Shown here piece by piece: positions 18,995 to 37,378 of a stretch of 37,378 bases of DNA. The notes under the pieces are model-generated. The model was not told where the DNA came from. It searched no databases and saw only the letters and a program-made list of their open reading frames with translations. The stretch comes from an uncultured Actinomycetes bacterium (GTDB lineage: Bacteria > Actinomycetota > Actinomycetes > S36-B12 > UBA5976), in NCBI GenBank assembly GCA_937896305.1, contig CALBND010000098.1:1-37378 (forward strand), read 5' to 3'. The translations under genes and the position numbers were made by a program. Within the stretch, counting starts at the first letter, position 1; each line of letters starts with the position of its first letter.

Positions 18995-21208
<2,214 letters not shown>

Positions 21209-21783: not shown

Positions 21784-23421
<1,638 letters not shown>

Positions 23422-23488: not shown

Positions 23489-24013
23489 TTATTTTTTACG
23501 CATTTTCAGTAAAAATGTTATCGCAACACCAATTGCTGCCCCTAAAGATAACCATTGCAACCAGTTAATACTTGACTTATTTTCCTCACCTTGCGCACTA
23601 ATTAACATCGGTTGATCATCTTGCGCAGTAATCTCTGGAGCGGATTCAACTACTTCTTCGGTAGCTAATTGAAGGGCGTAAACAACTTGTCCTTCTAGGG
23701 GATGACCATCAGAGGCAACTGTTTTGTAATTAATTATTAGTTCATTGCCTGTGATATCTGAGGCAATTGCTACATAAATATCAGCACCTTCAACTCGTAT
23801 GGTTGTTTCAAGAGAAGTTTCACCATAGGTCAGCGAAGCAAATGTTCCATCAGCAAGTATTTCTTCACCAAAAGTTAATTTAACTTCTGCAGGTAGCAAA
23901 ATTAAGCTTTGCTCGGTCGTAGGTTCGGTTGAGATTAAATCAGTGTGGGCAAGGGCTGGCAAGGCAGAAAAAAGTGAAATAAGAGTTAGCAGAATTACTC
24001 CTATTTTTTTCAT
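23489..24013 (-). CDS. CopC-domain copper-binding protein, secreted with a C-terminal membrane anchor
   Basis: 174 aa. Signal peptide ending ALA|HTD gives a mature N-terminal His. The D-x-H motif in VASDGHPLEG is the Cu(II)-site signature of CopC. Very few Met, so no Met-rich Cu(I) site. C-terminal TM helix followed by KMRKK. The ATG overlaps the TGA of the upstream GntR gene (ATGA). Confidence 0.75.
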   Translation of the reverse strand: MKKIGVILLTLISLFSALPALAHTDLISTEPTTEQSLILLPAEVKLTFGEEILADGTFASLTYGETSLETTIRVEGADIYVAIASDITGNELIINYKTVASDGHPLEGQVVYALQLATEEVVESAPEITAQDDQPMLISAQGEENKSSINWLQWLSLGAAIGVAITFLLKMRKK

Positions 24014-24747
24014 CTGGTTCTTAATATTAAAAATTGGAATCTTCCTTCAATAAAGTATGTCTTGCTGTACATCATGGGGTCACCTTCCCCTGAATAATGT
24101 ACTTGTTCTAGTAAGAGAAACAGATCATTTTTTGGTCTATCTGGACCCCAACCAATTTCTTTAGAGATAACCGCATTTAATTCAGCTAAAGCTCTAATCG
24201 GTCTGGAATTAATTGTGTCTAGTGATGCAAAGACACTGCCTGATTTCATTTGTTCCACTACTGCTTCAGAAAGGGAACTAATACTAATTGTGTCATAGGA
24301 GAAAGCAACTGGTTTTCCATCAGCTAAAACTGCACGCTCTAAATACAAAACCTGTTCAGGAAGATCTAGTTGTAATTTTTCCATTTCTTTCTCGGAAGCA
24401 TTGCGAATTTCAGAAACTTTAAATTCCATTGAAGGCGAATAGCCCATTTCGCGAATAGTTTCAGACATTGATCTAAGTTCATGTAAACCTGTCGGAATCG
24501 CTCTTCCAAAATCGTTTACATAAGTTCCTGAACCATGACGAATATCTAGTAGGCCTTGATATTCCAAAGTTTTTAAGGCAGTTCTAACGGTTACGCGTGA
24601 AACCTTATACTTCTCAGCTAATTCTGCTTCACTATTTATCTTCTCGCCCGGTGCCCATTCCTTGGCCAAAATCCGAGCCCGAATGTCGTCACTTATCTGC
24701 CTGGTCAGCGAGGCTCGACCGCCAAACTGCTCCCCACCAAGGCTCAT
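24010..24747 (-). CDS. GntR family transcriptional regulator, HutC subfamily (wHTH + UTRA effector domain)
   Basis: 245 aa. wHTH SEAELAEKYKVSRVTVRTALKTLEYQGLL and a ~150-aa C-terminal domain of UTRA type. Divergent from the mtnA-like operon. Confidence 0.85.
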   Translation of the reverse strand: MSLGGEQFGGRASLTRQISDDIRARILAKEWAPGEKINSEAELAEKYKVSRVTVRTALKTLEYQGLLDIRHGSGTYVNDFGRAIPTGLHELRSMSETIREMGYSPSMEFKVSEIRNASEKEMEKLQLDLPEQVLYLERAVLADGKPVAFSYDTISISSLSEAVVEQMKSGSVFASLDTINSRPIRALAELNAVISKEIGWGPDRPKNDLFLLLEQVHYSGEGDPMMYSKTYFIEGRFQFLILRTR

Positions 24748-24770
24748 GAGGCGAAGTATTTCTTTTTCAT
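24744..24770 (-). other. candidate 8-codon leader ORF (MKKKYFAS) translationally coupled to the GntR gene
   Basis: On the minus strand, AAGGA-N6-ATG AAA AAG AAA TAC TTC GCC TCA TGA. The TGA overlaps the GntR ATG (ATGA), and the GntR ATG has no Shine-Dalgarno of its own. Confidence 0.25.
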
Positions 24771-24828
24771 AACAAATCCTTAAAGGAAGTTGACAAGAAA
24801 GACGATATCTAAGAGGCTAGAGGCTGAA

Positions 24829-24843
24829 AGTTGTAGGACAACT
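24829..24843 (+). promoter_or_regulatory. operator site 1: perfect 15-bp palindrome AGTTGTAGGACAACT (candidate HutC/GntR box)
   Basis: AGTTGT-AGG-ACAACT sits 25 nt upstream of the likely mtnA-like start and 82 nt from the divergent GntR start. The identical 16-mer (A + 15-mer) recurs at 36274-36289 on the other strand. The GT..AC core is typical of GntR-family operators. Confidence 0.7.
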
Positions 24844-24868
24844 ATTGACTAATCAAAGAGGGGTTTTC

Positions 24869-25900
24869 TTGAAAGAGATTCGAGCGATTTCATGGGTAAA
24901 TGACGGTTTAACTTTGATCGATCAAACAAAGCTGCCGCATCAAGAAATCAATATCGAGATTGAAACGGTTGATCAATTAGTTGACGCGATTTCAACATTG
25001 GCTGTGCGAGGCGCACCAGCATTAGGTGCAGCTGGCGCTTGGGGAATTGTTGTTGCAATGCGACAAGGGGCCAAAGAAAACTGGAGTGCAGAAAAACTTA
25101 ATGCAGAATTTTTAAGAATTAGAAATGCTCGCCCGACAGCTGTTAATTTAGCTTGGGGGGTAGACAAAGTTTTACCAGTGGTTTCATCAGGAGTTGAGGC
25201 AGTACTTGCTGCTGCAAATAAAATTGCTGCAGAAGATGAAGCAGGAAATCGAGCAATGGGAAAATTGGGCGCTGATTGGATTGAGAAAAAAGTTGCCAAC
25301 AGACCAATTAGAGCATTAACACATTGCAACACCGGCTCACTTGCAACAACAACTTGGGGAACTGCGTTGGGAGTTATTAGAGAAATTAATTCTCGAGGAA
25401 TTTTAAAACACGTGTTTGCAGATGAAACAAGACCACTTCTGCAAGGTGGAAGATTGACAGCTTGGGAATTATCACAAGATGGTATCGAACATTTCGTCAT
25501 TGCTGATGGAGCCGCAACAAGTATTATTGCTCGCGGAGAAGTTGATGTTGCATTAATTGGAGCTGATCGAGTTGCAGCAAATGGAGATACTGCAAATAAA
25601 ATTGGATCTTTTGCTGTTGCCTTAGCTTGTAAGTATGCCGGGATTCCTTTTGTTGTTGTTGCACCTGAATCAACTGTAGATATCAGTACCCCAAGTGGAA
25701 AAGAAATAGAAATTGAATTTAGAAGTGAAGATGAAATATTGAGTTTAAATGGACAGAGAATTTCACCGAAACAATCAAAAGGTTTAAATCCTGCATTTGA
25801 CGTTACCCCTGCTGAATTAATTTCTGCACTAGTTACAGAAAAAGGGGTTTATGAAATCTCAAACGGAATTATCCCCGGATCTAGGGCGGTTTTAATTTAA
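24869..25900 (+). CDS. mtnA: MtnA/eIF-2B-like family isomerase (S-methyl-5-thioribose-1-phosphate isomerase family)
   Basis: Catalytic Cys motif THCNTGSLAT and Asp motif GADRVAANGDTANKIGS, plus NPAFDVTPAELI. The ORF track starts at TTG 24845, directly abutting the palindrome. I prefer TTG 24869, which has AAAGAGGGG 5 nt upstream and gives MKEIRAISW... Confidence 0.88.
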   Translation: MKEIRAISWVNDGLTLIDQTKLPHQEINIEIETVDQLVDAISTLAVRGAPALGAAGAWGIVVAMRQGAKENWSAEKLNAEFLRIRNARPTAVNLAWGVDKVLPVVSSGVEAVLAAANKIAAEDEAGNRAMGKLGADWIEKKVANRPIRALTHCNTGSLATTTWGTALGVIREINSRGILKHVFADETRPLLQGGRLTAWELSQDGIEHFVIADGAATSIIARGEVDVALIGADRVAANGDTANKIGSFAVALACKYAGIPFVVVAPESTVDISTPSGKEIEIEFRSEDEILSLNGQRISPKQSKGLNPAFDVTPAELISALVTEKGVYEISNGIIPGSRAVLI

Positions 25901-27891
25901 TGAATACCATTCCAAAACCTCTTCAAGAACTTGTTGAAAGATCACAAGTTTTAGGAAATAATCAAGATTTTGTTGTTTATGGTGGGGGAAATACTTCTGC
26001 CAAAGGTGAAATAAAAGATCATTTCCAAAGAAATAGAAAAGTCTTATGGGTCAAAGGATCTGGTGCAGACATGATGAATGCAACTGCTCCTGATTACCCT
26101 GCCCTCTATCTTGATGAATTACTTCCACTGTTGGATTTCAACGCCATGACTGATGAAGAAATGACGGATTTAGTTGGACGAGCTCTGGTAGATCCAACTA
26201 GTAGAAGGCCTTCCATTGAAACATTGCTACACGCTTTCTTGCCCTTTAAACATATTGACCACGTACATGCTGATGCAATTTGTGCTTTAACAAATCATAA
26301 AGATGGACAAAAGGCAGTACAAGAAGCATTAGGTGATGGATTTGCTTACGTAGATTGGATTAGACCTGGTTTTGAATTAAGTAAAAAATCATCTCTGCTT
26401 GGCGATTATGAAGGAATTATTTTAGCTCATCACGGACTAATCGTTTGGGACGAAGACAGTGATGTTTGTAAAGAAAAGAATTATGAAGTAATTAGAAAAG
26501 TTGAAAAATATCTATCTTCTTTAACAAAGAGACCTGATTCAATTTTTCAACATACTGAATATAGCGATGAAGAATACCAAACATTAATGTTACAAATTCG
26601 TGGTCGCTTAAATAAAAATAGTAAAAAAATTATTGTTAATGACCCACGATTAAAAGAAACATCTACCAGAAAAGATATCCAGGAAATAGTTTCTGCAGGA
26701 GTCTCAAGTGCAGACCATATGCTGAGAATCAAACCTTGGTCTGCTGTTATTGAAAACCCTAAAGAACCAAATAGTGTTAATAATTCAATTGATAAATACG
26801 CAAAAAATTATGAGAGATACTTTGAAGAAAATAAAAACTTATTGACTCCAGGTTATTCAATGCACGATACAGATCCAAGAGTTGTAATTGTTCCTGGAAT
26901 TGGCGCAATCACTTCAGGTTTAAACACAAATGAATGCAAAATGTATTCCGATATTGCATTTCATACTCACAAAACAGCCGCAATGGCAAAAGATGCATTT
27001 AATAATGTAGAAGGTTTACCAAACTCCGAAATATTTGGTTTTGATTATTGGCCAATGGAACTTTACAAATTGGCTAGCAAACCTGCCCCTAAGAAATTCG
27101 CTGGGAGTATATTTATCGTGACCGGTGCAGGTAGTGGTATTGGGAGAGGAATTGCTCTTGATCTAGCAGAAAAAGGAGCAACTCTAGTCTTGGCAGATCT
27201 AGACGAAAAGGGTCTCAGGGATGTTGAGGCTTTGTTTAAGGAATCTAAATTTAATCGACCACTGATTGTCAGTGGGGATCAATCAGATGAAAAAGTTGTT
27301 AGTCAAACAGTTGCTGAAACAATTAATAATTTTGGTGGATTTGATGGAGTCGTTTTCAGTGCCGGAATTGCAGTCACGGATTCACTCAAAGATTTAACTC
27401 TTGCTAAGTGGAATAAAGGATTAGCCGTGAACCTAACCAGTTCTTTCTTGATGACAAAGGCTGCTCTAAGCGCGTTACGAACACAAAACTCAGGTGGGTC
27501 TTTGGTTTACATTGCAAGCAAGAACGCATTTGCCCCGGGAGCTGGATTTGGTGGCTATTCAGTAAGTAAAGCTGGAATGTTGCAATTGATGAGAATTGCC
27601 GCCCTCGAAGGTGGCGCAGAAAAAATTAGAGCAAATGCAATTAATCCAGATGCAATTTTTGATAACAGCAAACTCTGGGAAGGAGGAATCAGAGAGGAAC
27701 GCGCTAAAGCTCACGGTGTTAAACCAGAAGCATTGGAAGATTTTTATGCACAAAGAAATATTTTAAAATCACATGTTACTTCCAAAGATGTCGCCGAAAC
27801 CACAGCATTTTTACTTTCTGATGAATCTGCCAGAACCACAGGCTCGGTCATTGCCGTCGACGGCGGAGTGGCTGCTGCGTTTCCGCGCTAA
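25900..27891 (+). CDS. bifunctional class II aldolase/adducin-domain + short-chain dehydrogenase fusion (YuxG/RhaEW-like)
   Basis: 663 aa. The N-terminal ~400 aa carry a metal motif HIDHVHAD and ILAHHGLIVWDED. The C-terminal SDR has TGAGSGIGRG and YSVSK. TAATG overlap with the preceding isomerase gene. Confidence 0.85.
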   Translation: MNTIPKPLQELVERSQVLGNNQDFVVYGGGNTSAKGEIKDHFQRNRKVLWVKGSGADMMNATAPDYPALYLDELLPLLDFNAMTDEEMTDLVGRALVDPTSRRPSIETLLHAFLPFKHIDHVHADAICALTNHKDGQKAVQEALGDGFAYVDWIRPGFELSKKSSLLGDYEGIILAHHGLIVWDEDSDVCKEKNYEVIRKVEKYLSSLTKRPDSIFQHTEYSDEEYQTLMLQIRGRLNKNSKKIIVNDPRLKETSTRKDIQEIVSAGVSSADHMLRIKPWSAVIENPKEPNSVNNSIDKYAKNYERYFEENKNLLTPGYSMHDTDPRVVIVPGIGAITSGLNTNECKMYSDIAFHTHKTAAMAKDAFNNVEGLPNSEIFGFDYWPMELYKLASKPAPKKFAGSIFIVTGAGSGIGRGIALDLAEKGATLVLADLDEKGLRDVEALFKESKFNRPLIVSGDQSDEKVVSQTVAETINNFGGFDGVVFSAGIAVTDSLKDLTLAKWNKGLAVNLTSSFLMTKAALSALRTQNSGGSLVYIASKNAFAPGAGFGGYSVSKAGMLQLMRIAALEGGAEKIRANAINPDAIFDNSKLWEGGIREERAKAHGVKPEALEDFYAQRNILKSHVTSKDVAETTAFLLSDESARTTGSVIAVDGGVAAAFPR

Positions 27892-27950: not shown

Positions 27951-29051
27951 ATGAGAAGAAGTAAAAACACAGCATTAGCTGGAATTTCAGTTGTTGCTGC
28001 ATTACTTCTCGCTGCATGTTCACAAGGTGGTAGCGATACCACTGCACCTGCAGCAGATGAAGGCACTGTTACTGATACAACTGCTGCTAAACCAGCGCCA
28101 TTTGACGCAGGATTAGTAAAGATTGCAATTGTACAAAACAGTGGAGCTGGAGATTATTTCCAACAATGGACAAACGGTGCTAAGCAACAAGCTGAAGCTA
28201 TCGGTTTTGACGTGCAAATTTATGACGCACAAGCTGATAACGCTAAGCAAGCAACTGACATGGAAACAGCAATTGGTTCTGGCGTAGCTGGCATCATTGT
28301 TGATCACGGTCAAAAAGACACCATGTGTCCATTGATCAAACAAGCAACTGATGCAGGTATTCCAGTAGTTGTTTACGACGTTGCTATTAGTGACTGCGCA
28401 CCGGATGCAGTACAAACACAACAAAGTGATGCATCTCTTGCCCAAGCAGTACTAGAGCAAATGGCAAAAGATCTTGGTAAAGATCAAAAAGTTGGATACG
28501 TAAACGTATTAGGTATCGCACCTTTGGATCGTCGTCACGTTGTATGGGAAGAAATTGTTAAAGCTAACAATTGGACCCAATCATTCTTCGTTGGTAAATT
28601 CACCAACGCAGTTGCAACTGACAATGCTCAATTAGTTGACGCAGCTCTAAAAGCTAATCCAGACGTAACAGGCATTTTTGCTCCTTACGATGAATTAACT
28701 AAGGGAACTGTTTCAGCAATTGAACAAAACAACCTTCAAGGTTCAATCAAGGCATACGGAATTGATATTTCAAATGCTGACATTGAAATCATGACCAAAG
28801 AAGGAAGCCCATGGGCAGCAACAGCAGGTACTGATCCAAACGCGATTGGTGCAGCAGTTGTTAGAAACATGGCTCTTGAACTAGCAGGCCAATTGGGTGT
28901 TAAATCAGTTGACTTCCCAGGTGTTCTTATCACTGCAGCTTTCCTAAAGGAAAATGCAATCAAGAACATGGTTGACTTGCGTGCAGCATTGCCATCATTG
29001 AACTTAGCCGAAGTTAGCGCTGCTGACTGGATTCCAGCAGTTAAGTTCTAA
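27951..29051 (+). CDS. sugar ABC transporter substrate-binding lipoprotein (RbsB/periplasmic binding protein type I family)
   Basis: 366 aa. Signal peptide with lipobox LLAAC, a Thr/Ala-rich linker, then an alternating alpha/beta type I PBP pattern (IAIVQNS...GIIVDHG...). Confidence 0.85.
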   Translation: MRRSKNTALAGISVVAALLLAACSQGGSDTTAPAADEGTVTDTTAAKPAPFDAGLVKIAIVQNSGAGDYFQQWTNGAKQQAEAIGFDVQIYDAQADNAKQATDMETAIGSGVAGIIVDHGQKDTMCPLIKQATDAGIPVVVYDVAISDCAPDAVQTQQSDASLAQAVLEQMAKDLGKDQKVGYVNVLGIAPLDRRHVVWEEIVKANNWTQSFFVGKFTNAVATDNAQLVDAALKANPDVTGIFAPYDELTKGTVSAIEQNNLQGSIKAYGIDISNADIEIMTKEGSPWAATAGTDPNAIGAAVVRNMALELAGQLGVKSVDFPGVLITAAFLKENAIKNMVDLRAALPSLNLAEVSAADWIPAVKF

Positions 29052-29081
29052 GTAACAAAAAGTAAAAGAAAAGGTGAGTTA

Positions 29082-30587
29082 ATGGTTGCAGCAGTGGAAG
29101 TTAGAAATATTTCCATGGCGTTTGGGTCAAACCAAGTGTTAAGTGGAGTAGATCTAATTATTGACAAAGGTCAAACAACCGCATTGTTAGGTGCTAATGG
29201 TGCGGGGAAATCCACTTTGATAAAAGTTTTATCCGGTGTTTATTCTTCCTTTACCGGAGAAATAATTATCGATGGTAAATCTGCAACTATTGACTCACCA
29301 ATTACTGCCAGAGCTTCTGGCATCGAAACAGTTCATCAAAGAATTGATGAAGGAGTAATCCCTGGTTTAACAGTTGCTGAAAATTTACTATTTGAACGAA
29401 TTGTCACAGGAGATGTGCCTAATCGCGTTTCACTAAAAACAATTGTTGAGAAAGCTGTAGAAATTGCAGCAGCACTAGATTTAAATTGGAATAAATCAAA
29501 GCTTAGAAGTGATGTTTACGAATTGGGAATAGCTGAACAGCAATTATTGATATTAGCCAGAGCACTTTCTCGCTCTCCCAAACTACTTATTTTAGATGAA
29601 CCAACATCAGCCCTTTCTGCATCAGAAAGTCAGAATTTATTTAAAGTTGTGAAAAATTTGCAAGATAAAGGTATTGCCATTCTCTATGTCTCACATAAAT
29701 TAAGTGAATTAGATCAAATTGCTAACAATCTAGTTGTGATTCGCGATGGGAAAATTAGAAATGAACAAAAAACACCTTTTAGTTGGGATCAGGCGCTGAA
29801 AGAAATGTTAGGCCAACAAATAGTTGGCCAAAGACAAGAAATTTCATCATTAGCAAGTGGCAAGGTTGCTTTGGAGCTAAAAGGAGTCAAACTTTTACCA
29901 GAAAGTGAGCCCATTAATTTATCTTTAAGAAAAAATGAAGTAACTGGTGTAATTGGTCTATTGGGTGCTGGAAAAACAGAATTAGCAAAAATTATTTATG
30001 GTGCTGAAAAAATTCTTGAAGGCGAAATGTTATTTGAAAATAAGAAATACCAACCATCTCATCCTGCAGAAGCCGTGGCAAAAGATATCTATCTAGTTCC
30101 TGAGGATCGAGCAGCAGAATCGATGATTCCTGCTTGGAGCATTTCTGAAACTGCAACTTTGCCTTTTATGGGCAATTTTTCAGCACGGGGAATTATTAAA
30201 AAAGCAGCAGAATTTATTCGAGGAAAACAACTGGTGGAAGATTTGAAAGTTATAACTACTTCGCATTTAGCTCAAGTTGATTCCTTATCGGGTGGTAATC
30301 AACAAAAAGTGGTTGTGGGTAGATGGCTACAATCCACACCTAAAATAATGATTTTGGACGAACCATTTCGAGGAGTCGATATTGGGGCTCGAAGGGATAT
30401 TTCAAAACGAGTTAGGGATTTAGCTGCAACAGATGTTGCAGTTTTAGTTTTAGCATCTGATGTTGATGAAATATTGGATGTCGCAGATCGGATAATTGTT
30501 CTAGTTGAGGGGAAGATAGTGATGGACGAAATATCAAGTAAGACTTCCAAAGAATTAATTGTCAACAAAATGTCGGAGGTGGCATAA
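29082..30587 (+). CDS. sugar ABC transporter ATP-binding protein (tandem ABC domains, RbsA-like)
   Basis: 501 aa. Walker A GANGAGKST and GLLGAGKTE, signature LSGGNQQKV in the second domain, Walker B ILDEP twice. Confidence 0.9.
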   Translation: MVAAVEVRNISMAFGSNQVLSGVDLIIDKGQTTALLGANGAGKSTLIKVLSGVYSSFTGEIIIDGKSATIDSPITARASGIETVHQRIDEGVIPGLTVAENLLFERIVTGDVPNRVSLKTIVEKAVEIAAALDLNWNKSKLRSDVYELGIAEQQLLILARALSRSPKLLILDEPTSALSASESQNLFKVVKNLQDKGIAILYVSHKLSELDQIANNLVVIRDGKIRNEQKTPFSWDQALKEMLGQQIVGQRQEISSLASGKVALELKGVKLLPESEPINLSLRKNEVTGVIGLLGAGKTELAKIIYGAEKILEGEMLFENKKYQPSHPAEAVAKDIYLVPEDRAAESMIPAWSISETATLPFMGNFSARGIIKKAAEFIRGKQLVEDLKVITTSHLAQVDSLSGGNQQKVVVGRWLQSTPKIMILDEPFRGVDIGARRDISKRVRDLAATDVAVLVLASDVDEILDVADRIIVLVEGKIVMDEISSKTSKELIVNKMSEVA

Positions 30588-31616
30588 ATGAGTACCGCAA
30601 AACTAAGTAACTTAGCCAATTATGATTTAAGGCAATTCACAGTTAAATATGGATTCATTGTTGTAACTGTGGTGCTCTTCTTATGGTTTGCTTTAACTGA
30701 ACCTTCATTTAGAATGGAATCAACATTGTTTTCAATGTTGAAATTTACTTCTGTAGTAGCCATCACTGGTCTTGGAGTAACTATGACAATGGTGGTCGGC
30801 GGACTTGATCTTTCTGTTGGATCGATTGCAGGGTTATCTGTAACACTTTCTGCGATGACTATGGTTATTTATGCTCAAACTGGTGCAGTTGCTTTAATAG
30901 TTGTTTTATTAGGTGGAGCGTTAGTCGGATTGTTTAATGCCTTCTTAATTGTGGTACTAAAAATTCCTGATCTCTTAGCAACCTTGGCTACAATGTTTAC
31001 AATCATGGGATTGAAACTTGTTCCAGTAGATGGACAGTCTGTTTCTTCAGGATTAATTTTACGAGATGGCAGTGTTGCTCCAGGAAAATTTACTCCAGGA
31101 TTTTTATTAATTGACCGAGCCTACATAGGGCCTGTTCCACTTCCTGTCGCCATATTTTTTGGATTAGCTTTTTTCGTTTGGTTTTTCTTGACCAGAACTA
31201 GATGGGGCAGAGTTATGTATGCAATTGGTTCAAATCCAGAAGCTGCCAGGCTTGCAGGGGTAAGAGTAAAAAGATATCGTGCTTTGGCCTACATTATGTC
31301 TGGTGTATTTGCTTCAATTGGTGGATTGATTTTGTCTTCTCGTATTGGTCAAGGAGACATCAGTGCCGGAAACTCACTTCTGCTAGACGCTGTGGCAGTT
31401 TCTTTAGTCGGAACTTCTGTATTAGGTATGGCAAGACCAAATGCTTGGGGAACAATATTAGGAGCAGTTTTAATTGGTATTGTGATCACTGGCTTAACTA
31501 TTAAAGGATTTCCTTATTACGCCCAAGATGTCGTGAAGGGCTTAGTCTTATTGACAGCTTTGATTTTCTCCTTTACTTTATCGAGGAGAAAAACTAAATT
31601 CGTACCTGCAGTTTAG
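30588..31616 (+). CDS. ABC transporter permease (RbsC/branched-chain sugar permease family)
   Basis: 342 aa, about 9-10 hydrophobic helices, GGLDLSVGS motif typical of RbsC-type permeases. Its start immediately follows the ATPase stop. Confidence 0.88.
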   Translation: MSTAKLSNLANYDLRQFTVKYGFIVVTVVLFLWFALTEPSFRMESTLFSMLKFTSVVAITGLGVTMTMVVGGLDLSVGSIAGLSVTLSAMTMVIYAQTGAVALIVVLLGGALVGLFNAFLIVVLKIPDLLATLATMFTIMGLKLVPVDGQSVSSGLILRDGSVAPGKFTPGFLLIDRAYIGPVPLPVAIFFGLAFFVWFFLTRTRWGRVMYAIGSNPEAARLAGVRVKRYRALAYIMSGVFASIGGLILSSRIGQGDISAGNSLLLDAVAVSLVGTSVLGMARPNAWGTILGAVLIGIVITGLTIKGFPYYAQDVVKGLVLLTALIFSFTLSRRKTKFVPAV

Positions 31617-31629
31617 AAAAGGAGATAAT

Positions 31630-32856
31630 GTGGCTGAAGAATATGAATTTTTATCAAAAGATAATATTTCAAGTTATTTATCAAGCAAAGCGGTCTTTTC
31701 TAAATTAATTGATTCGCAAAACATTGTTGTATTCAAAGAAGTTGGGGACGGTAATTTAAATCTCGTTTTTATTATGAAAGACAATAAAGGAAAAGGAATT
31801 GTCTTAAAGCAAGCACTTCCTTATGTACGACTTGTGGGACCAGATTGGCCCATGACACCAACCAGGGCTCGCATAGAAGCTGAAACAACAATTGCGCATT
31901 CAAAGTATGCAAAAGATTTAGTTCCAGAAATTTATGATTACGATGAATCTCGTTACATTATTGCGATGGAAGACTTATCTGATCATGTTGTTTGGCGAGG
32001 AGCGCTAAATGAAGGATTTCAATTTGAAGGTGTAGCTGGACCACTTGGAACCTATGTTGCAAAAACTGGTTTTGGAACTTCAGTTTTTACACTAGGACAA
32101 GAAACTCACAAACTAGAATTGGCTCGAGCAATTAATCCAGGATTATGTTTAATCACAGAAGATCTAGTATTCTCTGAACCATATTTTGAAAATGGAAGAA
32201 ATTCATTTCTTCCAGCAAATGAAATTGATGCAAAAGAATTGGCAAATGATTCAGATATGGTTAGAGAAATTGGAATATTGAAATATAAATTCATGACAAC
32301 TTCTGAAAGCTTAATTCATGGAGATTTACACACAGGTTCAGTAATGATTAAAGCTGAAGATAAACAATCAGCTATCAGCATTAAAGCAATCGATTCTGAA
32401 TTTGCTTTCTATGGTCCACTGGCCTTTGATCTAGGTGCTCTAATGGCAAATTATGTGATTGCAGCTGCGAGATTTTGCGCACTTGGCAAGATAGAACAGA
32501 TGCAATGGGCACTTGGACTGCCTGAACAAACCTGGGTTGCTTTTGAAAAGGAAATTCGAGCCCTTTGGCCAACTCGGGTTGATAAACGCGTATTTAACGA
32601 TGAGTTTTTGGAAGTTTTGTTGAAAACTTGGCGGGAAGACGCTTTGGGATTTACTGGTGCAAAAATGGCCAGAAGAATTGTTGGACTAGCTAAAACAACC
32701 GATATTGAAACCTTGGAACCAAATCTTCGTGAAGGTGCTGCTCGTGGGGTGCTACGAGCCGCTCGCATGATTACTAAAACCAGAAAACAAGTTAAAACTT
32801 GGGCGGACATTGCTAATGAAACAAAAGCAATTTTAACTTCAGCGGCAACAAAATAA
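31630..32856 (+). CDS. mtnK: MtnK family kinase (S-methyl-5-thioribose kinase family)
   Basis: 408 aa, GTG start after AAGGAG. EVGDGNLNLVF, KQALPYVRLVGPDWPMTPTRARIEAE and HGDLHTGSV are close matches to the Bacillus MtnK signature motifs. Confidence 0.88.
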   Translation: MAEEYEFLSKDNISSYLSSKAVFSKLIDSQNIVVFKEVGDGNLNLVFIMKDNKGKGIVLKQALPYVRLVGPDWPMTPTRARIEAETTIAHSKYAKDLVPEIYDYDESRYIIAMEDLSDHVVWRGALNEGFQFEGVAGPLGTYVAKTGFGTSVFTLGQETHKLELARAINPGLCLITEDLVFSEPYFENGRNSFLPANEIDAKELANDSDMVREIGILKYKFMTTSESLIHGDLHTGSVMIKAEDKQSAISIKAIDSEFAFYGPLAFDLGALMANYVIAAARFCALGKIEQMQWALGLPEQTWVAFEKEIRALWPTRVDKRVFNDEFLEVLLKTWREDALGFTGAKMARRIVGLAKTTDIETLEPNLREGAARGVLRAARMITKTRKQVKTWADIANETKAILTSAATK

Positions 32857-32865
32857 GGAGAAATT

Positions 32866-33225
32866 ATGAAAACACCTCGTGAAATAGCAGAATCATATTG
32901 GAAAGCAGAATGCGCTAGAGACACTGCAGCTGTTTTAAGCCACTATCATCAGGATGCAGTTTTTTGTCCACCTGGACAAGAGTTAAAAGGTCACGAACAA
33001 ATTGCTACGTTTTATGATGCTTCAGGTGAATCATTTCCTGGACTAAAAGTTGAAATATTGCATGAAGTCAGAAATGGTGATGAAAGTTGTCTTGAATGGT
33101 ATGCAACATTGACTGATAAAAATGGGAATGTATTTAATATTCCGGGAGTAAATGTAATTAAGATTAGAGATGAAAAATTTGAATCTGTTCACGCATACTT
33201 TGATCCGACTGTATTAAACGCTTAA
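32866..33225 (+). CDS. SnoaL-like / NTF2-fold small protein of unknown function
   Basis: 119 aa with strong AAGGAG Shine-Dalgarno. The N-terminal helix plus ...YHQDAVF..P... pattern and size match the SnoaL/ketosteroid-isomerase-like cone fold. It is the last gene of the plus-strand operon. Confidence 0.6.
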   Translation: MKTPREIAESYWKAECARDTAAVLSHYHQDAVFCPPGQELKGHEQIATFYDASGESFPGLKVEILHEVRNGDESCLEWYATLTDKNGNVFNIPGVNVIKIRDEKFESVHAYFDPTVLNA

Positions 33226-34325
33226 CCTTCTATTTTATCTACAATATTTCTTAGACTTTTAGCATTCTCAAGTAAGTTACCTCGGTGTAGCGCTCCACCG
33301 ATTAAAAACACGGTGTCATTGCCAAAGAAGTTAATTATTTCTGAAATTCTTTCAATCGTCATCCCACCACCAGGACTTGGCCAAATTGTTTTAATTTCAC
33401 CTAGTTGACTTCTACATGTATCAGCTATCTTTGTGCATTCATCTTTTGAAAAACTAAACCTGCCACCATAATTTGGAAACACAGAAATATCTGCTCCAGC
33501 TAAACGCATTAATGTGGCTAGAACAATTTCATGATTTATTCCATGATTTTTGCTCATAAAATGTGATCCAAGCATTGAAGGGTGACTCATGATTGGTAGA
33601 GCAATTTCATCGTTATCTGCAATTGCTCTCATAGTGTCAAAACCTGAAACTCCCGGTAGCACCATTAATGCACCACTACCTAACTGTGCTGCTCTGATTG
33701 CAGAATCAATAATTTGATCTGCAGGAAGATTGACACTGGGAGCGTAAACAGATTTAGTGCCAAATTTTTCATTAGCTTCATTAACGGCACTAGCAATAAT
33801 TTTGACGCGATCTTCCCAAAGCGCCCAAGGCTGATTGGCCAAACTGTGATCATCTTTTATTAGGTCGATCCCTGCTTCAACCATCACCACAGCTATTTGA
33901 GCCATTTCTTTTGCACTCAACCCCATTGGTTTTAAGGCAGTTGCCAATATGGGGCGATTTTTAATCCCAAAGTATTCACGTAAACCACTTATCCCAAATC
34001 TTGGTCCTTTAAATACAGCTAGTTGATCTTGTTCAAGCTCTATGTCAACTACTCGCACATCCGGAAACATCGAAACATTGCCCCATAAAACATTTAAGAG
34101 CTGGGGAAGTTCATTTCCGGTTATACCTACGTTGTAATCAATTTCTAAAAGAGAGCGATTGTTTGCTAGTGAATTTAAGTTAACGACTTGACCCACAACT
34201 TCATTTTGAATCCAAGTTGGAGCTAATTCAATGGGAAATTCTATTGTTTGTTCAACTCTGATGGCTTCAGCAACTTCTTTGGCAGAATCAGTATTTAATT
34301 CATAACTTATTCTAAAAGTACTCAT
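33222..34325 (-). CDS. RuBisCO-like protein (form IV RLP), short divergent type
   Basis: 367 aa. By-eye alignment to the RuBisCO large subunit: LKPMGLSAKE vs IKPKLGLSAKN, IDLIKDDHSLANQPW vs LDFTKDDENVNSQPF, IMSHPSM vs HIHRAMH, PSPGGGM vs VASGGIH, LIGGALH vs FGGGTLGH, and N-domain GNV retained. Confidence 0.85.
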   Translation of the reverse strand: MSTFRISYELNTDSAKEVAEAIRVEQTIEFPIELAPTWIQNEVVGQVVNLNSLANNRSLLEIDYNVGITGNELPQLLNVLWGNVSMFPDVRVVDIELEQDQLAVFKGPRFGISGLREYFGIKNRPILATALKPMGLSAKEMAQIAVVMVEAGIDLIKDDHSLANQPWALWEDRVKIIASAVNEANEKFGTKSVYAPSVNLPADQIIDSAIRAAQLGSGALMVLPGVSGFDTMRAIADNDEIALPIMSHPSMLGSHFMSKNHGINHEIVLATLMRLAGADISVFPNYGGRFSFSKDECTKIADTCRSQLGEIKTIWPSPGGGMTIERISEIINFFGNDTVFLIGGALHRGNLLENAKSLRNIVDKIEG

Positions 34326-34330
34326 AACTA

Positions 34331-35344
34331 TTACAGAGCTTCTGCTTTAGCGGTGCTATGTACGTCGATGACTCTGGTTTGTGATAACTCTTCTTCAGAT
34401 ATTTTAAGATCTTTATCCATTAATTTTTCTGTTGCTTCAATTAAACTTCTGGCACCCAATCCATATTTTTGTAACAAGTATTTTTGAGATGCACCATGTG
34501 CGTAAGTATCTTTAAGTCCAATTTTTATGAGTTTCTTGCCAATGCCATGTTCAGCCATTAAATCAGCTACAGCACTACCCAGTCCACCTATTACGCTGTG
34601 ATTTTCCATGGAAATAATTCCATGTTTAGCTGATTTTAAACTTTCAATAACTTGCGGATCGTCGAATGGCTTTAATGTTGAAATATGTAAATGCTGCACA
34701 GAAACACCATGTTCTTGCAAGGCAGGTATGGCACGCAGTGCTTCTTCTGTAGAAATACCAGAACTGATTACAGTTACATCGAAACCATTACTCAAAACTC
34801 TTGCTTGGTTAAATTGCATGGCTTCTGCTTTAGGAAAAATACGAGAAACTTCACCGCGCAGCATTCTTATGTAAACTGGGCCATCAATTTTGTGGGCTAC
34901 ATCTAATACCGATTCGACTTCGGTAGCGTCTCCGGTTTCCAAAATTGTCATGTTTGGAACGCCTCTTAAAGCATTAATGTCATCTATTGCTTGATGAGTA
35001 ACTCCTCCTGGGGTGGTGATTCCTGGCAAAAAGCCCACAAATCGAACTGGAAGATTTGGGTAAGCCACTGATAAATGAAGTTGATCAAATGGTCGACGGT
35101 AAAGAAATACAGCAAAAGTGTGCAGCCATGGTTCAAAACCTTCTCGAGCTAATCCAGCTGCAAAGGAAACCATATTTTGTTCAGCCATACCCATTGAGAT
35201 GTATCTCTCTGGGTAAATATCACGCCATTTACCAACTTCACATGAATTAGTTAAATCAGCTGTGACTACCAAAACTTTTGGTTTATCTTTGCTCCAATTA
35301 ATAAAGTTTTCAACATGTGGTCTATTTACAATTTCGTATCCCAT
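34331..35344 (-). CDS. transketolase family protein, C-terminal (pyrimidine-binding + C-terminal domain) subunit
   Basis: 337 aa. Catalytic-Glu region ISMGMAEQNMVSFAAGLA, then HTFAVF. Its ATG abuts the TAA of the N-terminal subunit gene (TAAATG). Confidence 0.88.
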   Translation of the reverse strand: MGYEIVNRPHVENFINWSKDKPKVLVVTADLTNSCEVGKWRDIYPERYISMGMAEQNMVSFAAGLAREGFEPWLHTFAVFLYRRPFDQLHLSVAYPNLPVRFVGFLPGITTPGGVTHQAIDDINALRGVPNMTILETGDATEVESVLDVAHKIDGPVYIRMLRGEVSRIFPKAEAMQFNQARVLSNGFDVTVISSGISTEEALRAIPALQEHGVSVQHLHISTLKPFDDPQVIESLKSAKHGIISMENHSVIGGLGSAVADLMAEHGIGKKLIKIGLKDTYAHGASQKYLLQKYGLGARSLIEATEKLMDKDLKISEEELSQTRVIDVHSTAKAEAL

Positions 35345-36247
35345 TTAAACCCAAGCCTCCAAAAATTCTTTGTACTTTTCCCGCTCAGCTGGACTTGAAA
35401 AACGTACATAATGCAAAGTTGGTGCTCGCTCTTGCAAGATTGGAATATCTCTTATGGGATCGGTGTAGCAAAGAATTATCTTTGGCTTATCTGTTTTTGC
35501 AGTTCCAGCAGCAAAAATTTCATCAATACTATTTCCATCTACAACCGATACGTCCCAACCAAAACTTTCAACTCTTTGTTTAAGTGGTTCAATAGACATA
35601 ACGCTTTCCATCGGCCCATCACATTGGTTTTTATTGACATCAACAATAACTTTTAGATTGTCTAATTTGTGATAACTAGAAGCAGCTAAGGCTTCCCAAG
35701 TTTGACCTTCTTGGAATTCTCCATCAGACATGAAAACCCAAACATTTCCAGTTTCTTTTTTAAATTTGCGAGCCATGGCAACTCCGCTTGCTTGGGAAAG
35801 TGCTTGAGCGAGTGAACCTGTGGTGGTTTCAAATCCAGGGGAGTGCTCAGCACCTATCATTTCAACAGTTGATCCATCTTTATTAAATTTTTCTAAAGAA
35901 CTCTCACTTAATCTTTTTGTTTCAATCAAAGCTGCATAAATGACTAGGGCATAATGAGCAGGGCTCATGAAAATTCGATCTAACTCTGGACCCTGCCGGC
36001 CGTGAAATTCTGCACCCGTGACATAACTTTTAAAAGTTTCACTAGGTACCCCCAAGAACGGTCTTGGATCTAAAGGCTTTTCCAGTGGTGTGATTTTTGC
36101 TAAACCACCATAAAGGCTGGCCAAAATTTCAGCAGCCGAACAAGCTTGGCTTAAATAACCACCGTTATTTAAAACAGTGTGTTCTAATACTCGACGTCTT
36201 ATGCCGTGGGCAATGGCCTCTACTTCGGCTTTGTTCTCAATTGTCAT
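35345..36247 (-). CDS. transketolase, N-terminal (thiamine diphosphate-binding) subunit
   Basis: 300 aa. GGYLSQACSAAEILASLY, SPAHYA, and a ThDP motif variant SDGEFQEGQTWEA...VDVNKN. Confidence 0.88.
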   Translation of the reverse strand: MTIENKAEVEAIAHGIRRRVLEHTVLNNGGYLSQACSAAEILASLYGGLAKITPLEKPLDPRPFLGVPSETFKSYVTGAEFHGRQGPELDRIFMSPAHYALVIYAALIETKRLSESSLEKFNKDGSTVEMIGAEHSPGFETTTGSLAQALSQASGVAMARKFKKETGNVWVFMSDGEFQEGQTWEALAASSYHKLDNLKVIVDVNKNQCDGPMESVMSIEPLKQRVESFGWDVSVVDGNSIDEIFAAGTAKTDKPKIILCYTDPIRDIPILQERAPTLHYVRFSSPAEREKYKEFLEAWV

Positions 36248-36273
36248 TATGTCTTGAATATAGCAAAGAGAGC

Positions 36274-36288
36274 AGTTGTCCTACAACT
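36274..36288 (-). promoter_or_regulatory. operator site 2: the same palindrome (reads AGTTGTAGGACAACT on the minus strand) upstream of the transketolase-RLP operon
   Basis: The plus strand reads AGTTGTCCTACAACT, 27-41 nt upstream of the transketolase ATG (36247). A TATATT -10-like hexamer (minus strand, 36262-36257) lies 11 nt downstream of it, and no Shine-Dalgarno is visible. Confidence 0.7.
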
Positions 36289-36302
36289 TCTGTCCAGCAT
36301 TA

Positions 36303-36336
36303 AAAAGTCCCCTTTATTTGCATAAAGGGGACTTTT
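36303..36336. terminator. intrinsic (bidirectional-looking) terminator after the whiB-like gene
   Basis: AAAAGTCCCCTTTAT (36303-36317) pairs perfectly with ATAAAGGGGACTTTT (36322-36336), loop TTGC, with an A-run before and a T-run after. It separates whiB from the transketolase promoter region. Confidence 0.85.
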
Positions 36337-36366
36337 CTTTTGGAGGGTCATTCAAAAAGACTATAT

Positions 36367-36666
36367 TTATCCAGCTATTGGCATTGGTGCTTTAACTGGG
36401 GCATAGATGGTTTCGCGATCATCTTCACTCATCGCACCCCACACCCCATAAGGTTCACGAACCGCTAGGGCATGTTCAGCACATTGACGAAGAACTGGGC
36501 AGGTGGCACAAATTGACTTGGCCAATGCGATCCTGTTCTCGCGGGCTGGGCCACGCTCACCTTCGGGATGAAAGAAAATCTCAGGATCTTCCCCACGGCA
36601 AGCACCTTTCAACTGCCAGTCCCAAATATCAGCATTTGGACCGGGCAATCTTGAGATATCAGCCAT
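36367..36666 (-). CDS. whiB: WhiB family [4Fe-4S] transcription factor (WhiB3/WhiD-like)
   Basis: 99 aa. LPGPNADIWDWQLKGACRG...FFHPEGERG...CATCPVLRQCAEHAL...PYGVWGA. Four Cys in the WhiB pattern, and an N-terminus very close to the mycobacterial WhiB3 pattern LPGPNADIWNWQ. Confidence 0.92.
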   Translation of the reverse strand: MADISRLPGPNADIWDWQLKGACRGEDPEIFFHPEGERGPARENRIALAKSICATCPVLRQCAEHALAVREPYGVWGAMSEDDRETIYAPVKAPMPIAG

Positions 36667-36813
36667 TTAGGGCTCCTTTGATTGTTACTTCTACTTAAAA
36701 CTATATAGATTGTTCATAAGTTAGTCAATCAAAAGCAATGAACAGTTTAGTGAAATAGGTCATAGTGGGGAACTCAGGTAGCCAAAAGTGGTGAAGTTAG
36801 GCAGACTTTAGCC

Positions 36814-37378
36814 ATGAACACCGAAGTTTTACCAGGCGATGAAGCCACATTCGTGGGATTAACTGTTGCCATGGTTGCTAGTCGAGTAGGAGTAGCTCCT
36901 GCAACTTTGAGAACTTGGGAACGCCGTTATGGCATGAGTCCTAGTCAAAGATCTGAAGGTGGCCATAGACGTTATTGCTCAACAGACATTGTGCGTTTAG
37001 AAATTATGCGACGCTTAGTTCTTTCAGGAATGCCAGCAGGAGATGCGGCACGAGCAGCTCTAGAATCTAAAATTCCTGATGTCTCAATGATTTCACCAGT
37101 TGATATTGAACAAATAGTTTTAAGAGTAAGTGAAATATTTAAAACTCTAGATTGTCACACCACTTCACTTCATCCAGGGGGTGGAGCAGTTTTATCAATA
37201 GCTGGATCAAATGCAATTGCTCGCGGATTATCAAAAGCTGCCTCATCTTTGGATTCAGAAAGTTGTAATCAAATAATAACTCAAAATATTAACGAAAAAG
37301 GCGTGGTATGGACTTGGGAAAATTTAATCTCTAAAGTCATATGCGCTCTAGGGGAACGTTGGGCAAAGACTGGTCAAG
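36814..37378 (+). CDS. MerR family transcriptional regulator (3' end outside window)
   Basis: Open frame from ATG 36814 to the window end (hand-translated, no stops). The N-terminal HTH LTVAMVASRVGVAPATLRTWERRYGMSP..GGHRRY matches the MerR signature. It is absent from the ORF track because it is truncated. Confidence 0.75.
   Translation, partial: MNTEVLPGDEATFVGLTVAMVASRVGVAPATLRTWERRYGMSPSQRSEGGHRRYCSTDIVRLEIMRRLVLSGMPAGDAARAALESKIPDVSMISPVDIEQIVLRVSEIFKTLDCHTTSLHPGGGAVLSIAGSNAIARGLSKAASSLDSESCNQIITQNINEKGVVWTWENLISKVICALGERWAKTGQ

Follow-up and report, generated by a model that had tools for sequence, protein, structure and literature searches.

A RuBisCO-like protein paired with a split transketolase-like enzyme: a putative variant of methylthioadenosine salvage in several bacterial phyla

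A gene for a RuBisCO-like protein (RLP) beside a cupin gene is the hallmark of the 5'-methylthioadenosine (MTA)-isoprenoid shunt. To our knowledge, every route of RLP-based MTA salvage known so far pairs the RLP with a cupin that depends on a cell-specific thiol. In R. palustris, 5-methylthioribulose-1-phosphate (MTRu-1-P) 1,3-isomerase activity is verified for RLP1 (RPA2169), and the cupin encoded next to it, RPA2170, acts as the 1-methylthio-xylulose-5-phosphate (MTXu-5-P) methylsulfurylase (PMC5893883). The cupin methylsulfurylase depends on an active thiol, and the thiol used varies from phylum to phylum (PMC6302742). The stretch of DNA described here, contig CALBND010000098.1 of assembly GCA_937896305.1 (37,378 nucleotides, hereafter the window), comes from an uncultured actinobacterium of low GC content (38–42%) that is related to the freshwater Nanopelagicales/acI Actinobacteria. 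Its RLP gene is preceded by tktN and tktC, which encode the two halves of a transketolase-like, thiamine diphosphate (ThDP)-dependent enzyme (Table 1). The system is probably RLP-based methylthioadenosine salvage with a new partner enzyme, and it extends well beyond the window.

The locus shares with the MTA-isoprenoid shunt of R. rubrum and R. palustris the input, MTRu-1-P from MtnA, as well as the RLP type and its invariant residues. An aldolase branch of the type of the dihydroxyacetone phosphate (DHAP) shunt lies alongside, as in R. palustris. In contrast to the shunt, the split ThDP enzyme is found in the partner position instead of the cupin. Glyceraldehyde-3-phosphate (G3P), a C2 acid and methanethiol are predicted as products in place of 1-deoxyxylulose-5-phosphate (DXP), and a thiol reductant would not be needed. 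Two-gene transketolase-like enzymes in dedicated catabolic clusters have been described as AptAB (apulose-4-phosphate transketolase) and SqwGH (sulfofructose transketolase), but their contexts are apiose and sulfoquinovose. Catabolism of sulfoquinovose or apiose is ruled out for the loci analyzed here by the context of mtnK, mtnA, mtnP and nupC.

In the window, the stop codon of tktN abuts the start codon of tktC (TAAATG), with a GGAGG inside tktN 11 nt upstream of the tktC start, and only 5 nt (tagtt) separate tktC from the RLP gene. An earlier note on this DNA had described these junctions, which are exact to the base, and had taken the transketolase to be operonic with the RLP. The latter claim holds far beyond the window. 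A scan with one genome per species yielded 80 loci, 62 of which are informative in that their sequence extends 2 kb or more beyond the RLP gene on the upstream side. Locus counts were derived from tblastn coordinates because ORF calling gave spurious antisense ORFs in high-GC loci. The pair tktN-tktC is located directly upstream of the RLP gene on the same strand in 49 of the 62 informative loci, and in a few further loci within ~2.7 kb of it. A cupin gene is next to the RLP gene, without tkt genes, in three of these loci and six have neither. There is no partner cupin in the window or in the tkt-linked loci.

Carriers of the trio belong to about eight phyla, namely Actinomycetota, Chloroflexota, Bacillota, Planctomycetota, Spirochaetota, Pseudomonadota (Gammaproteobacteria), NC10 and Myxococcota (Polyangia). 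Among them are Chloroflexus sp. MS-G, Alicyclobacillus sp. ALC3, Alkalispirochaeta alkalica DSM 8900 and Enemella sp. A6. In locus L071 (7776–9986) of an uncultured bacterium, the transketolase-like halves are seemingly fused in one ORF of 736 aa immediately upstream of the RLP gene, with a start that is probably overcalled. This fusion supports the halves as subunits of one enzyme. A full-text search of the literature found no paper on an RLP together with a transketolase or thiamine enzyme, although subscription journals may hold an earlier mention. No database name was found for the pairing either; databases give the ThDP enzyme generic names only. Apparently, the association of an RLP with a transketolase-like enzyme in this trio is a conserved module that had escaped description.

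In eleven loci, the order is mtnK-mtnA-tktN-tktC-RLP. Where their gene maps were inspected (e.g. L049 and L062), the clusters lack any further conserved pathway enzyme such as an aldolase, which leaves the ThDP enzyme and the RLP as the sole conserved candidates for acting on the product of MtnA. Recurrent neighbors in the scanned loci are the nucleoside transporter NupC, a PNP/MtnP phosphorylase, a short class II aldolase, a Cys/Met pyridoxal phosphate (PLP) enzyme and SorC or GntR regulators. The fusion of a class II aldolase with a short-chain dehydrogenase (SDR) is paired with mtnA in 29 loci. In Alicyclobacillus sp. ALC3 (L049, 2784–3944), a SorC regulator, a Cys/Met PLP enzyme, an amino-acid permease, mtnK, mtnA, tktN, tktC and the RLP gene lie together, which ties the trio to methionine and sulfur metabolism. 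The Cys/Met PLP enzyme is also encoded in the flanking sequence retrieved for L067 and L072. Downstream of the RLP gene, loci of Chloroflexota and Spirochaetota encode a ~390-aa protein that matches SBP_bac_1 weakly and lacks an obvious signal peptide (L061, 11113–12270; L075, 12012–13214; also L074 and L079). This protein looks like a cytoplasmic solute-binding-like protein.

The window RLP has the features of the DeepYkr type, a RuBisCO catalytic domain of ~370 aa and an association with mtnA, mtnK or mtnP. It matches PF00016, and the KDDH metal/carbamate motif (K157-D158-D159-H160) is nearly invariant. Among solved structures, 3qfw scores best (224 bits), followed by the MtnW enolases with 163 and 149 bits. 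Relatives were sought among 1.8 billion cluster representatives, and many of those with 35–50% identity are RLP–Cupin_2 fusions. Cupin-adjacent RLPs reach up to 56% identity to the window RLP (L011). The score against the MtnW model PRK09549 is 222 bits compared to a cut-off of 409, and Asn83 aligns with the MtnW catalytic base Lys98 (G. kaustophilus numbering). An MtnW-enolase function, with the aldolase domain serving as MtnB dehydratase, is excluded since Lys98 is missing, the model score does not reach the cut-off and the close relatives are cupin-linked.

At 54 positions, at least 90% conservation is found in both the tkt-linked (n = 68) and the cupin-linked RLPs (n = 35). Only positions 30 and 367 are specific for the tkt-linked group. 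Both are outside the known catalytic motifs, and position 367 rests on two sequences. A crude neighbor-joining tree does not separate the tkt-linked from the cupin-linked RLPs but intermingles them, suggesting that the partner has been exchanged more than once. We conclude that the tkt-linked RLPs would catalyze the same reaction as the cupin-linked ones.

Both halves of the ThDP enzyme were aligned with E. coli TktA and DXP synthase (DXS), and residues were checked over 55–63 loci (TktA numbering unless stated otherwise). The ThDP/metal motif GDG-X(~28)-N and the cofactor-activating Glu are present. Asp155, Asn185 and Glu411 of TktA correspond to Asp175 and Asn205 of tktN and Glu55 of tktC, and these are invariant in 55–61 loci. 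His473, Arg520 and Ser385 are retained in nearly all loci; in the sugar-phosphate site, Ser34 and Arg163 of the enzyme are retained. A His is also present at the position of His261, and the position of His66 is occupied by His in 51 and by Gln in four of 55 loci. Plausibly, Arg/Lys8 is the counterpart of Arg358. On the other hand, four substrate-contacting residues are replaced: His26 by Tyr (55 of 55 loci), His100 by Met (49 of 55, otherwise Leu or Gln), His461 by Phe (62 of 62) and Asp469 by Gly (63 of 63). Additionally, there is an insertion of ~30 aa after residue 45 of tktN.

The histidines for C1-OH and C3-OH of the donor (His26, His100, His261 and His473) and the sugar-phosphate site, in which Asp469 serves the 2-OH of the aldose, thus depart from the pattern of EC 2.2.1.1. 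Identity to E. coli TktA is 22%. With the best NCBIfam model, NF004559, tktN scores 146 bits and tktC 188 bits, and even their sum falls short of the full-length cut-off of 488. All NCBIfam equivalog scores of both halves are far below their cut-offs, and the tktC half has 160 bits on a DXS model. Since several of the residues that define EC 2.2.1.1 are missing, the enzyme is, as judged from its residues, transketolase-like and not a canonical transketolase. The split transketolase of Carboxydothermus hydrogenoformans (PDB entries 6yak and 6yaj) has the same fold, two-gene split and cofactor residues. However, the canonical residues are kept there, while the four replacements and the insertion are found here. 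Furthermore, the genes described here are linked to an RLP gene, in contrast to the linkage of canonical transketolases to pentose-phosphate genes.

The position of His100 is occupied by Phe in all DXP synthases, and the exchange H100F/L moves the donor use of a transketolase towards pyruvate, which is non-hydroxylated (PMC7661550). Hydrophobicity at this position thus points to a donor without C1-OH. It would fit a ketose with a CH3 or CH2-S-CH3 group at C1, as offered by the product of the RLP. Of the DXS positions compared, only this hydrophobic one (Met) agrees. His49, Arg420 and Asp427 of DXS are Tyr, Leu and Gly here, and the single-chain architecture of DXS is absent.

On balance, the trio probably constitutes the distal half of the salvage of 5-methylthioribose (MTR) and MTA, possibly also of 5-deoxyribose. 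The ABC transporter and MtnK (in other genomes MTA phosphorylase) would feed MtnA, which would provide MTRu-1-P. The RLP would shift the carbonyl of MTRu-1-P to give MTXu-5-P. The split ThDP enzyme would act on MTXu-5-P, in the place held by the cupin methylsulfurylase in the MTA-isoprenoid shunt, and the thiol requirement of the cupin offers a rationale for its replacement. The aldolase/SDR fusion would form a parallel DHAP-shunt-like branch from the same ribulose-1-phosphate intermediate. R. palustris runs both the isoprenoid-shunt and the DHAP-shunt routes (PMC5893883). As a prediction from gene context and residues, the sequence of steps from MtnK and MtnA via the RLP to TktNC is strongly supported. 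The proposal of the earlier note of a substrate-product relationship between the RLP and the transketolase stands up in silico: the RLP is of the isomerase type, tkt genes and cupin are alternative partners and the residues for the C1-OH of the donor are lost.

For the last step, ThDP would attack C2 of MTXu-5-P, and cleavage of the C2–C3 bond would free G3P. The ThDP-bound C2 carbanion would expel the CH3S− in β position as methanethiol to form acetyl-ThDP, and the acetyl group would leave as acetate or acetyl phosphate. The net reaction (MTXu-5-P + H2O → G3P + acetate + CH3SH) would be balanced without a thiol reductant or O2. β-Elimination to acetyl-ThDP is the chemistry of phosphoketolase, of sulfoacetaldehyde acetyltransferase (Xsc) and of fluoropyruvate turnover. 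The resemblance to phosphoketolase and Xsc, comprising a ThDP carbanion, β-elimination and acetyl-ThDP, is a mechanistic one; these enzymes belong to different branches of the ThDP superfamily. Tentatively, TktNC may represent an unrecognized ThDP family, a phosphoketolase-like, methanethiol-forming MTXu-5-P lyase. Together with the RLP it might provide a third route of sulfur salvage that is independent of thiol and O2, present in at least eight phyla and standard in the most abundant freshwater bacterioplankton.

Some observations speak against this interpretation. The elimination of methanethiol is a step that we infer from chemistry alone. With Gly in place of Asp469 and Phe in place of His461, the site that normally takes the G3P part is altered, so the substrate or its binding may differ. 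Moreover, the window RLP is 36% identical to the verified R. palustris enzyme compared to 31% identity to an MtnW enolase.

It is conceivable, though rather unlikely, that the ThDP enzyme takes the RLP product without loss of methanethiol and either releases 2-(methylthio)acetaldehyde, as a lyase comparable to DXP synthase in reverse, or transfers the C2 unit to an acceptor aldehyde, as a true transketolase whose donor is unusual. The evidence that couples the RLP to the transketolase applies equally to such a reaction, and both its fold and its cofactor residues are typical of transferases. The neighboring aldolase/SDR fusion shows that the cell can process products of the methylthio-acetaldehyde type. 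However, this reaction would repeat the product of the aldolase branch with the sulfur still bound, and the inspected maps among the eleven mtnK-mtnA-tktN-tktC-RLP loci reveal no conserved downstream enzyme. Furthermore, by analogy with phosphoketolase, Xsc and fluoropyruvate, a thioether β to a ThDP carbanion should be a good leaving group.

Less probable still is 5-deoxyribose, derived from 5'-deoxyadenosine, as the main substrate. In this case the RLP would convert 5-deoxyribulose-1-phosphate to DXP, which the ThDP enzyme would interconvert with G3P and a hydroxyethyl or acetaldehyde unit. The Met at the position of His100 resembles the Phe found there in DXP synthases, enzymes that deal with a methyl group at C1, and tktC scores against DXS models almost as well as against transketolase models. 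Kinase and isomerase of the DHAP shunt are described as bifunctional for MTR and 5-deoxyribose. On the other hand, DXP is itself a valuable precursor and its cleavage brings no obvious gain, the aldolase branch already disposes of 5-deoxyribulose-1-phosphate and the residues for G3P in DXS (Arg420, Asp427 and His49) are replaced by Leu, Gly and Tyr. The Cys/Met PLP enzyme in the L049 cluster and in the L067 and L072 flanks also points to sulfur metabolism. That the split enzyme is a housekeeping transketolase of the pentose phosphate pathway placed beside the RLP by chance is highly improbable: its Pfam and NCBIfam matches are to generic transketolase models and databases name it accordingly, but the four contacting residues are replaced in all or nearly all lineages, the identity to TktA (22%) is low and the NCBIfam scores are far under the equivalog cut-offs, the linkage to the RLP is strict across phyla with an operator shared with mtnA, and all Nanopelagicales isolates are reported to encode a transketolase, its type not being stated (PMC12817590).

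Two promoters of the methylthioribose salvage genes in the window carry the same 15-bp palindrome, AGTTGTAGGACAACT. The exact 15-mer is present in only two copies in 37 kb, each in the same orientation relative to the downstream gene. When up to three mismatches are allowed, there are 7 matches compared to 1.28 expected, and none of 100 shuffles reached 7. The operator is found with 0–3 mismatches ahead of tktN in L001, L006, L007, L008, L015, L019 and L035, and ahead of mtnA, beside gntR, in L001, L006, L007, L025, L015, L019 and L035. RLPs of the operator-bearing lineages are just 54–71% identical to the window RLP, and the GC content of some of these lineages is much higher.

The features of a GntR/HutC regulon are present, i.e. 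a GntR helix-turn-helix (HTH) domain with a UTRA domain and a palindrome repeated at the target promoters. The L001 ortholog of the regulator has GntR and UTRA domains. Repressors of the HutC/DasR type share the GntR HTH and the UTRA effector domain with the window regulator. They also share a 15-bp palindrome with GT...AC half-sites that overlaps promoters, including the divergent promoter of the regulator itself. HutC/DasR-type operators are of the type A(G/C)TGGTCTAGACCA(G/C)T. The predicted GntR/HutC repressor would bind both copies of AGTTGTAGGACAACT, and the tkt-RLP and mtnA-aldolase-ABC-mtnK operons would form one regulon. On the tktN side, the bound repressor would overlap the -35 region of the promoter.

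In the intergenic region of gntR and mtnA (24748–24845), a TTGACA and the block ATATCTAAGAGGCTA are conserved. On the minus strand, a TTGTCC inside the operator is followed after 16 nt by TAGCCT, a possible autoregulated gntR promoter. A -10 element of mtnA is not assignable with confidence in this region. The start codon of mtnA is likely the TTG at 24869 with the Shine-Dalgarno sequence AGAGGGG, as based on comparison of the N-terminus with L006 and L007. The mechanical ORF call is a TTG at 24845, right after the operator. Thus, mtnA would have a conventional leader, in contrast to tktN.

Upstream of tktN, the order is the whiB stop codon, a terminator hairpin, the operator palindrome, 11 nt, TATATT, 9 nt and the ATG. 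The earlier note had claimed the part from the palindrome to the ATG, without a Shine-Dalgarno sequence, as an operator-occluded, near-leaderless promoter, and the layout of this part is confirmed to the base. No GGAGG-like sequence is present in this interval, and there is no alternative in-frame start ahead of the conserved N-terminal helix. A -35-like TTGTAG within the operator with a spacer of 17–18 nt recurs in L001, L006, L007, L008, L015, L019 and L035, so a bound repressor would cover the -35 element. A TANNNT hexamer is located 6–9 nt before the start codon in eight other lineages despite a large shift in GC content, and a Shine-Dalgarno sequence is not conserved among the compared tktN promoters (Table 2). 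Leaderless mRNAs are common in Actinobacteria. As judged from this layout, the tktN mRNA is probably leaderless or has a leader of 1–3 nt.

The whiB terminator has a folding energy of -25.9 kcal/mol (z = -6.2), and equivalent hairpins follow whiB in L001, L003, L006, L007 and L008. Such a hairpin is predicted to insulate the tkt promoter from whiB transcription. The conserved layout, the operator shared with mtnA and the strong whiB terminator all support the claim of an occluded near-leaderless promoter in silico. Public RNA with this sequence is available from three metatranscriptome runs as assembled, unstranded contigs with a depth of 3–15, from which the 5' end of the tktN transcript is not placeable. 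One contig of low depth (3.7) spans 35949–36319 and includes the -10 hexamer, the operator and part of the terminator loop, reaching 72 nt upstream of the ATG. If it is derived from RNA, it represents some read-through or an upstream start, which argues against a near-leaderless transcript. The whiB contig (depth 15) ends at the terminator. It departs from the window right after the U-run with 10 unmatched letters (36299–36319; X18 and X19). Contig ends at the terminator may reflect strain variation or 3' ends of transcripts.

It is doubtful that read-through from whiB, or a start further upstream than the palindrome, accounts for most of the tktN transcription, with a leadered mRNA and the palindrome acting as a roadblock. 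The contig from an RNA library covers 36248–36319, as expected for such a transcript. Yet its depth is 3.7 and it is unstranded, so one read from genomic DNA or read-through could explain it, and the deeper whiB contig stops at a terminator that is strong and conserved. In addition, the distance from the -10 hexamer to the start codon is kept at 6–9 nt in nine lineages without a conserved Shine-Dalgarno sequence. Rfam gave no match at the gathering threshold in the window or in eight non-actinobacterial loci, and no tRNAs were found. A link to sulfur metabolism through a SAM riboswitch is therefore unusable as support.

Table 1. Features of the tkt-RLP and mtnA operons and their surroundings. 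All coordinates are window positions; the tkt operon is read on the minus strand.
Feature	Position	Strand	Description
tktN	36247..35345	-	300 aa; Transketolase_N; putative ThDP/diphosphate-binding half of non-canonical split transketolase-like enzyme
tktC	35344..34331	-	337 aa; Transket_pyr + Transketolase_C; putative pyrimidine-binding and C-terminal half
RLP gene	34325..33222	-	367 aa; RuBisCO_large; DeepYkr (isomerase) type; predicted MTRu-1-P 1,3-isomerase
Intrinsic terminator of whiB	36337..36302	-	16-bp stem followed by U-run
Operator palindrome AGTTGTAGGACAACT	36288..36274	-	upstream of tktN
-35-like TTGTAG	36286..36281	-	within operator palindrome
-10 hexamer TATATT	36262..36257	-	18 nt past TTGTAG, 9 nt ahead of tktN ATG
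Second operator copy, identical	24829..24843	+	between divergent gntR and mtnA
GntR/HutC-family regulator	24747..24010	-	full-length match to HutC/PhnF-type models; presumed repressor
mtnA-like 5-methylthioribose-1-phosphate isomerase	24869..25900	+	TIGR00512, 413 bits, above cut-off
Class II aldolase/SDR fusion	25900..27891	+	domain matches
Sugar ABC transporter	27951..31616	+	binding protein 27951–29051, ATPase 29082–30587, permease 30588–31616
mtnK-like 5-methylthioribose kinase	31630..32856	+	TIGR01767, 378 bits; cut-off 275
SnoaL/NTF2-like gene	32866..33225	+	domain match
whiB	36367–36666	-	upstream of tkt operon
MerR-family gene	~36813–37378	+	divergent from whiB; cut by window end

Table 2. 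Comparison of tktN promoters.
Locus	Operator to -10	-10 hexamer	-10 to start	Start codon
Window	11 nt	TATATT	9 nt	ATG
L001	11 nt	TAGAGT	8 nt	ATG
L006, L007	11 nt	TATGCT	8 nt	ATG
L008	11 nt	TATTCT	6 nt	ATG
L015	10 nt	TAGGGT	6 nt	ATG
L035	10 nt	TAGCCT	6 nt	ATG
L019	10 nt	TACCCT	6 nt	GTG
L003	operator absent	TAGAGT	9 nt	ATG

The plus-strand genes of the window (mtnA, the aldolase/SDR fusion, the ABC transporter, mtnK and the SnoaL-like gene) converge on the RLP operon. The SnoaL/NTF2-like gene accompanies mtnK in every locus of Nanopelagicales type (8 loci), and in some of them mtnK and tktN flank it directly on the same strand. In the window, the stop codons of the SnoaL-like and RLP genes overlap in a convergent TTAA (33222–33225) with no terminator between them, and the L001 coordinates imply the same 4-nt overlap. 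The SnoaL-like protein might epimerize methylthioribulose 5-phosphate (MTRu-5-P), a minor product of the RLP.

In all close relatives, whiB and the divergent MerR gene are located upstream of the tkt operon. The MerR ortholog in L003 also has a B12-binding_2 domain, which suggests that the MerR protein is a LitR/CarH-like light-responsive regulator. Elsewhere in the window, a KatG-like catalase-peroxidase of 719 aa with two peroxidase-domain stretches is encoded at 19049–21208 (+) in this streamlined acI-type genome. It is located near groEL (21799–23421), a CopC-domain gene, glmS, alr and tsaB/D.

Regulation of the system is ordinary but cleanly supported, and the main interest lies in the enzymology. 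The predicted GntR regulon with its two operators and its conserved, probably leaderless promoter provides a clean regulatory model in a genetically hard lineage, and the cultured carriers make the enzymology directly testable. Should the proposed reaction be correct, TktNC would be a new enzyme family with a new reaction, the loss of a C–S bond through a thiamine carbanion, and would account for thousands of genes that now carry the labels 'transketolase' or 'DXS N-terminal domain protein'. Streamlined freshwater Actinobacteria are generally regarded as dependent on reduced sulfur. The pathway would then show how these bacteria recover sulfur and carbon from imported or internal methylthioribose.

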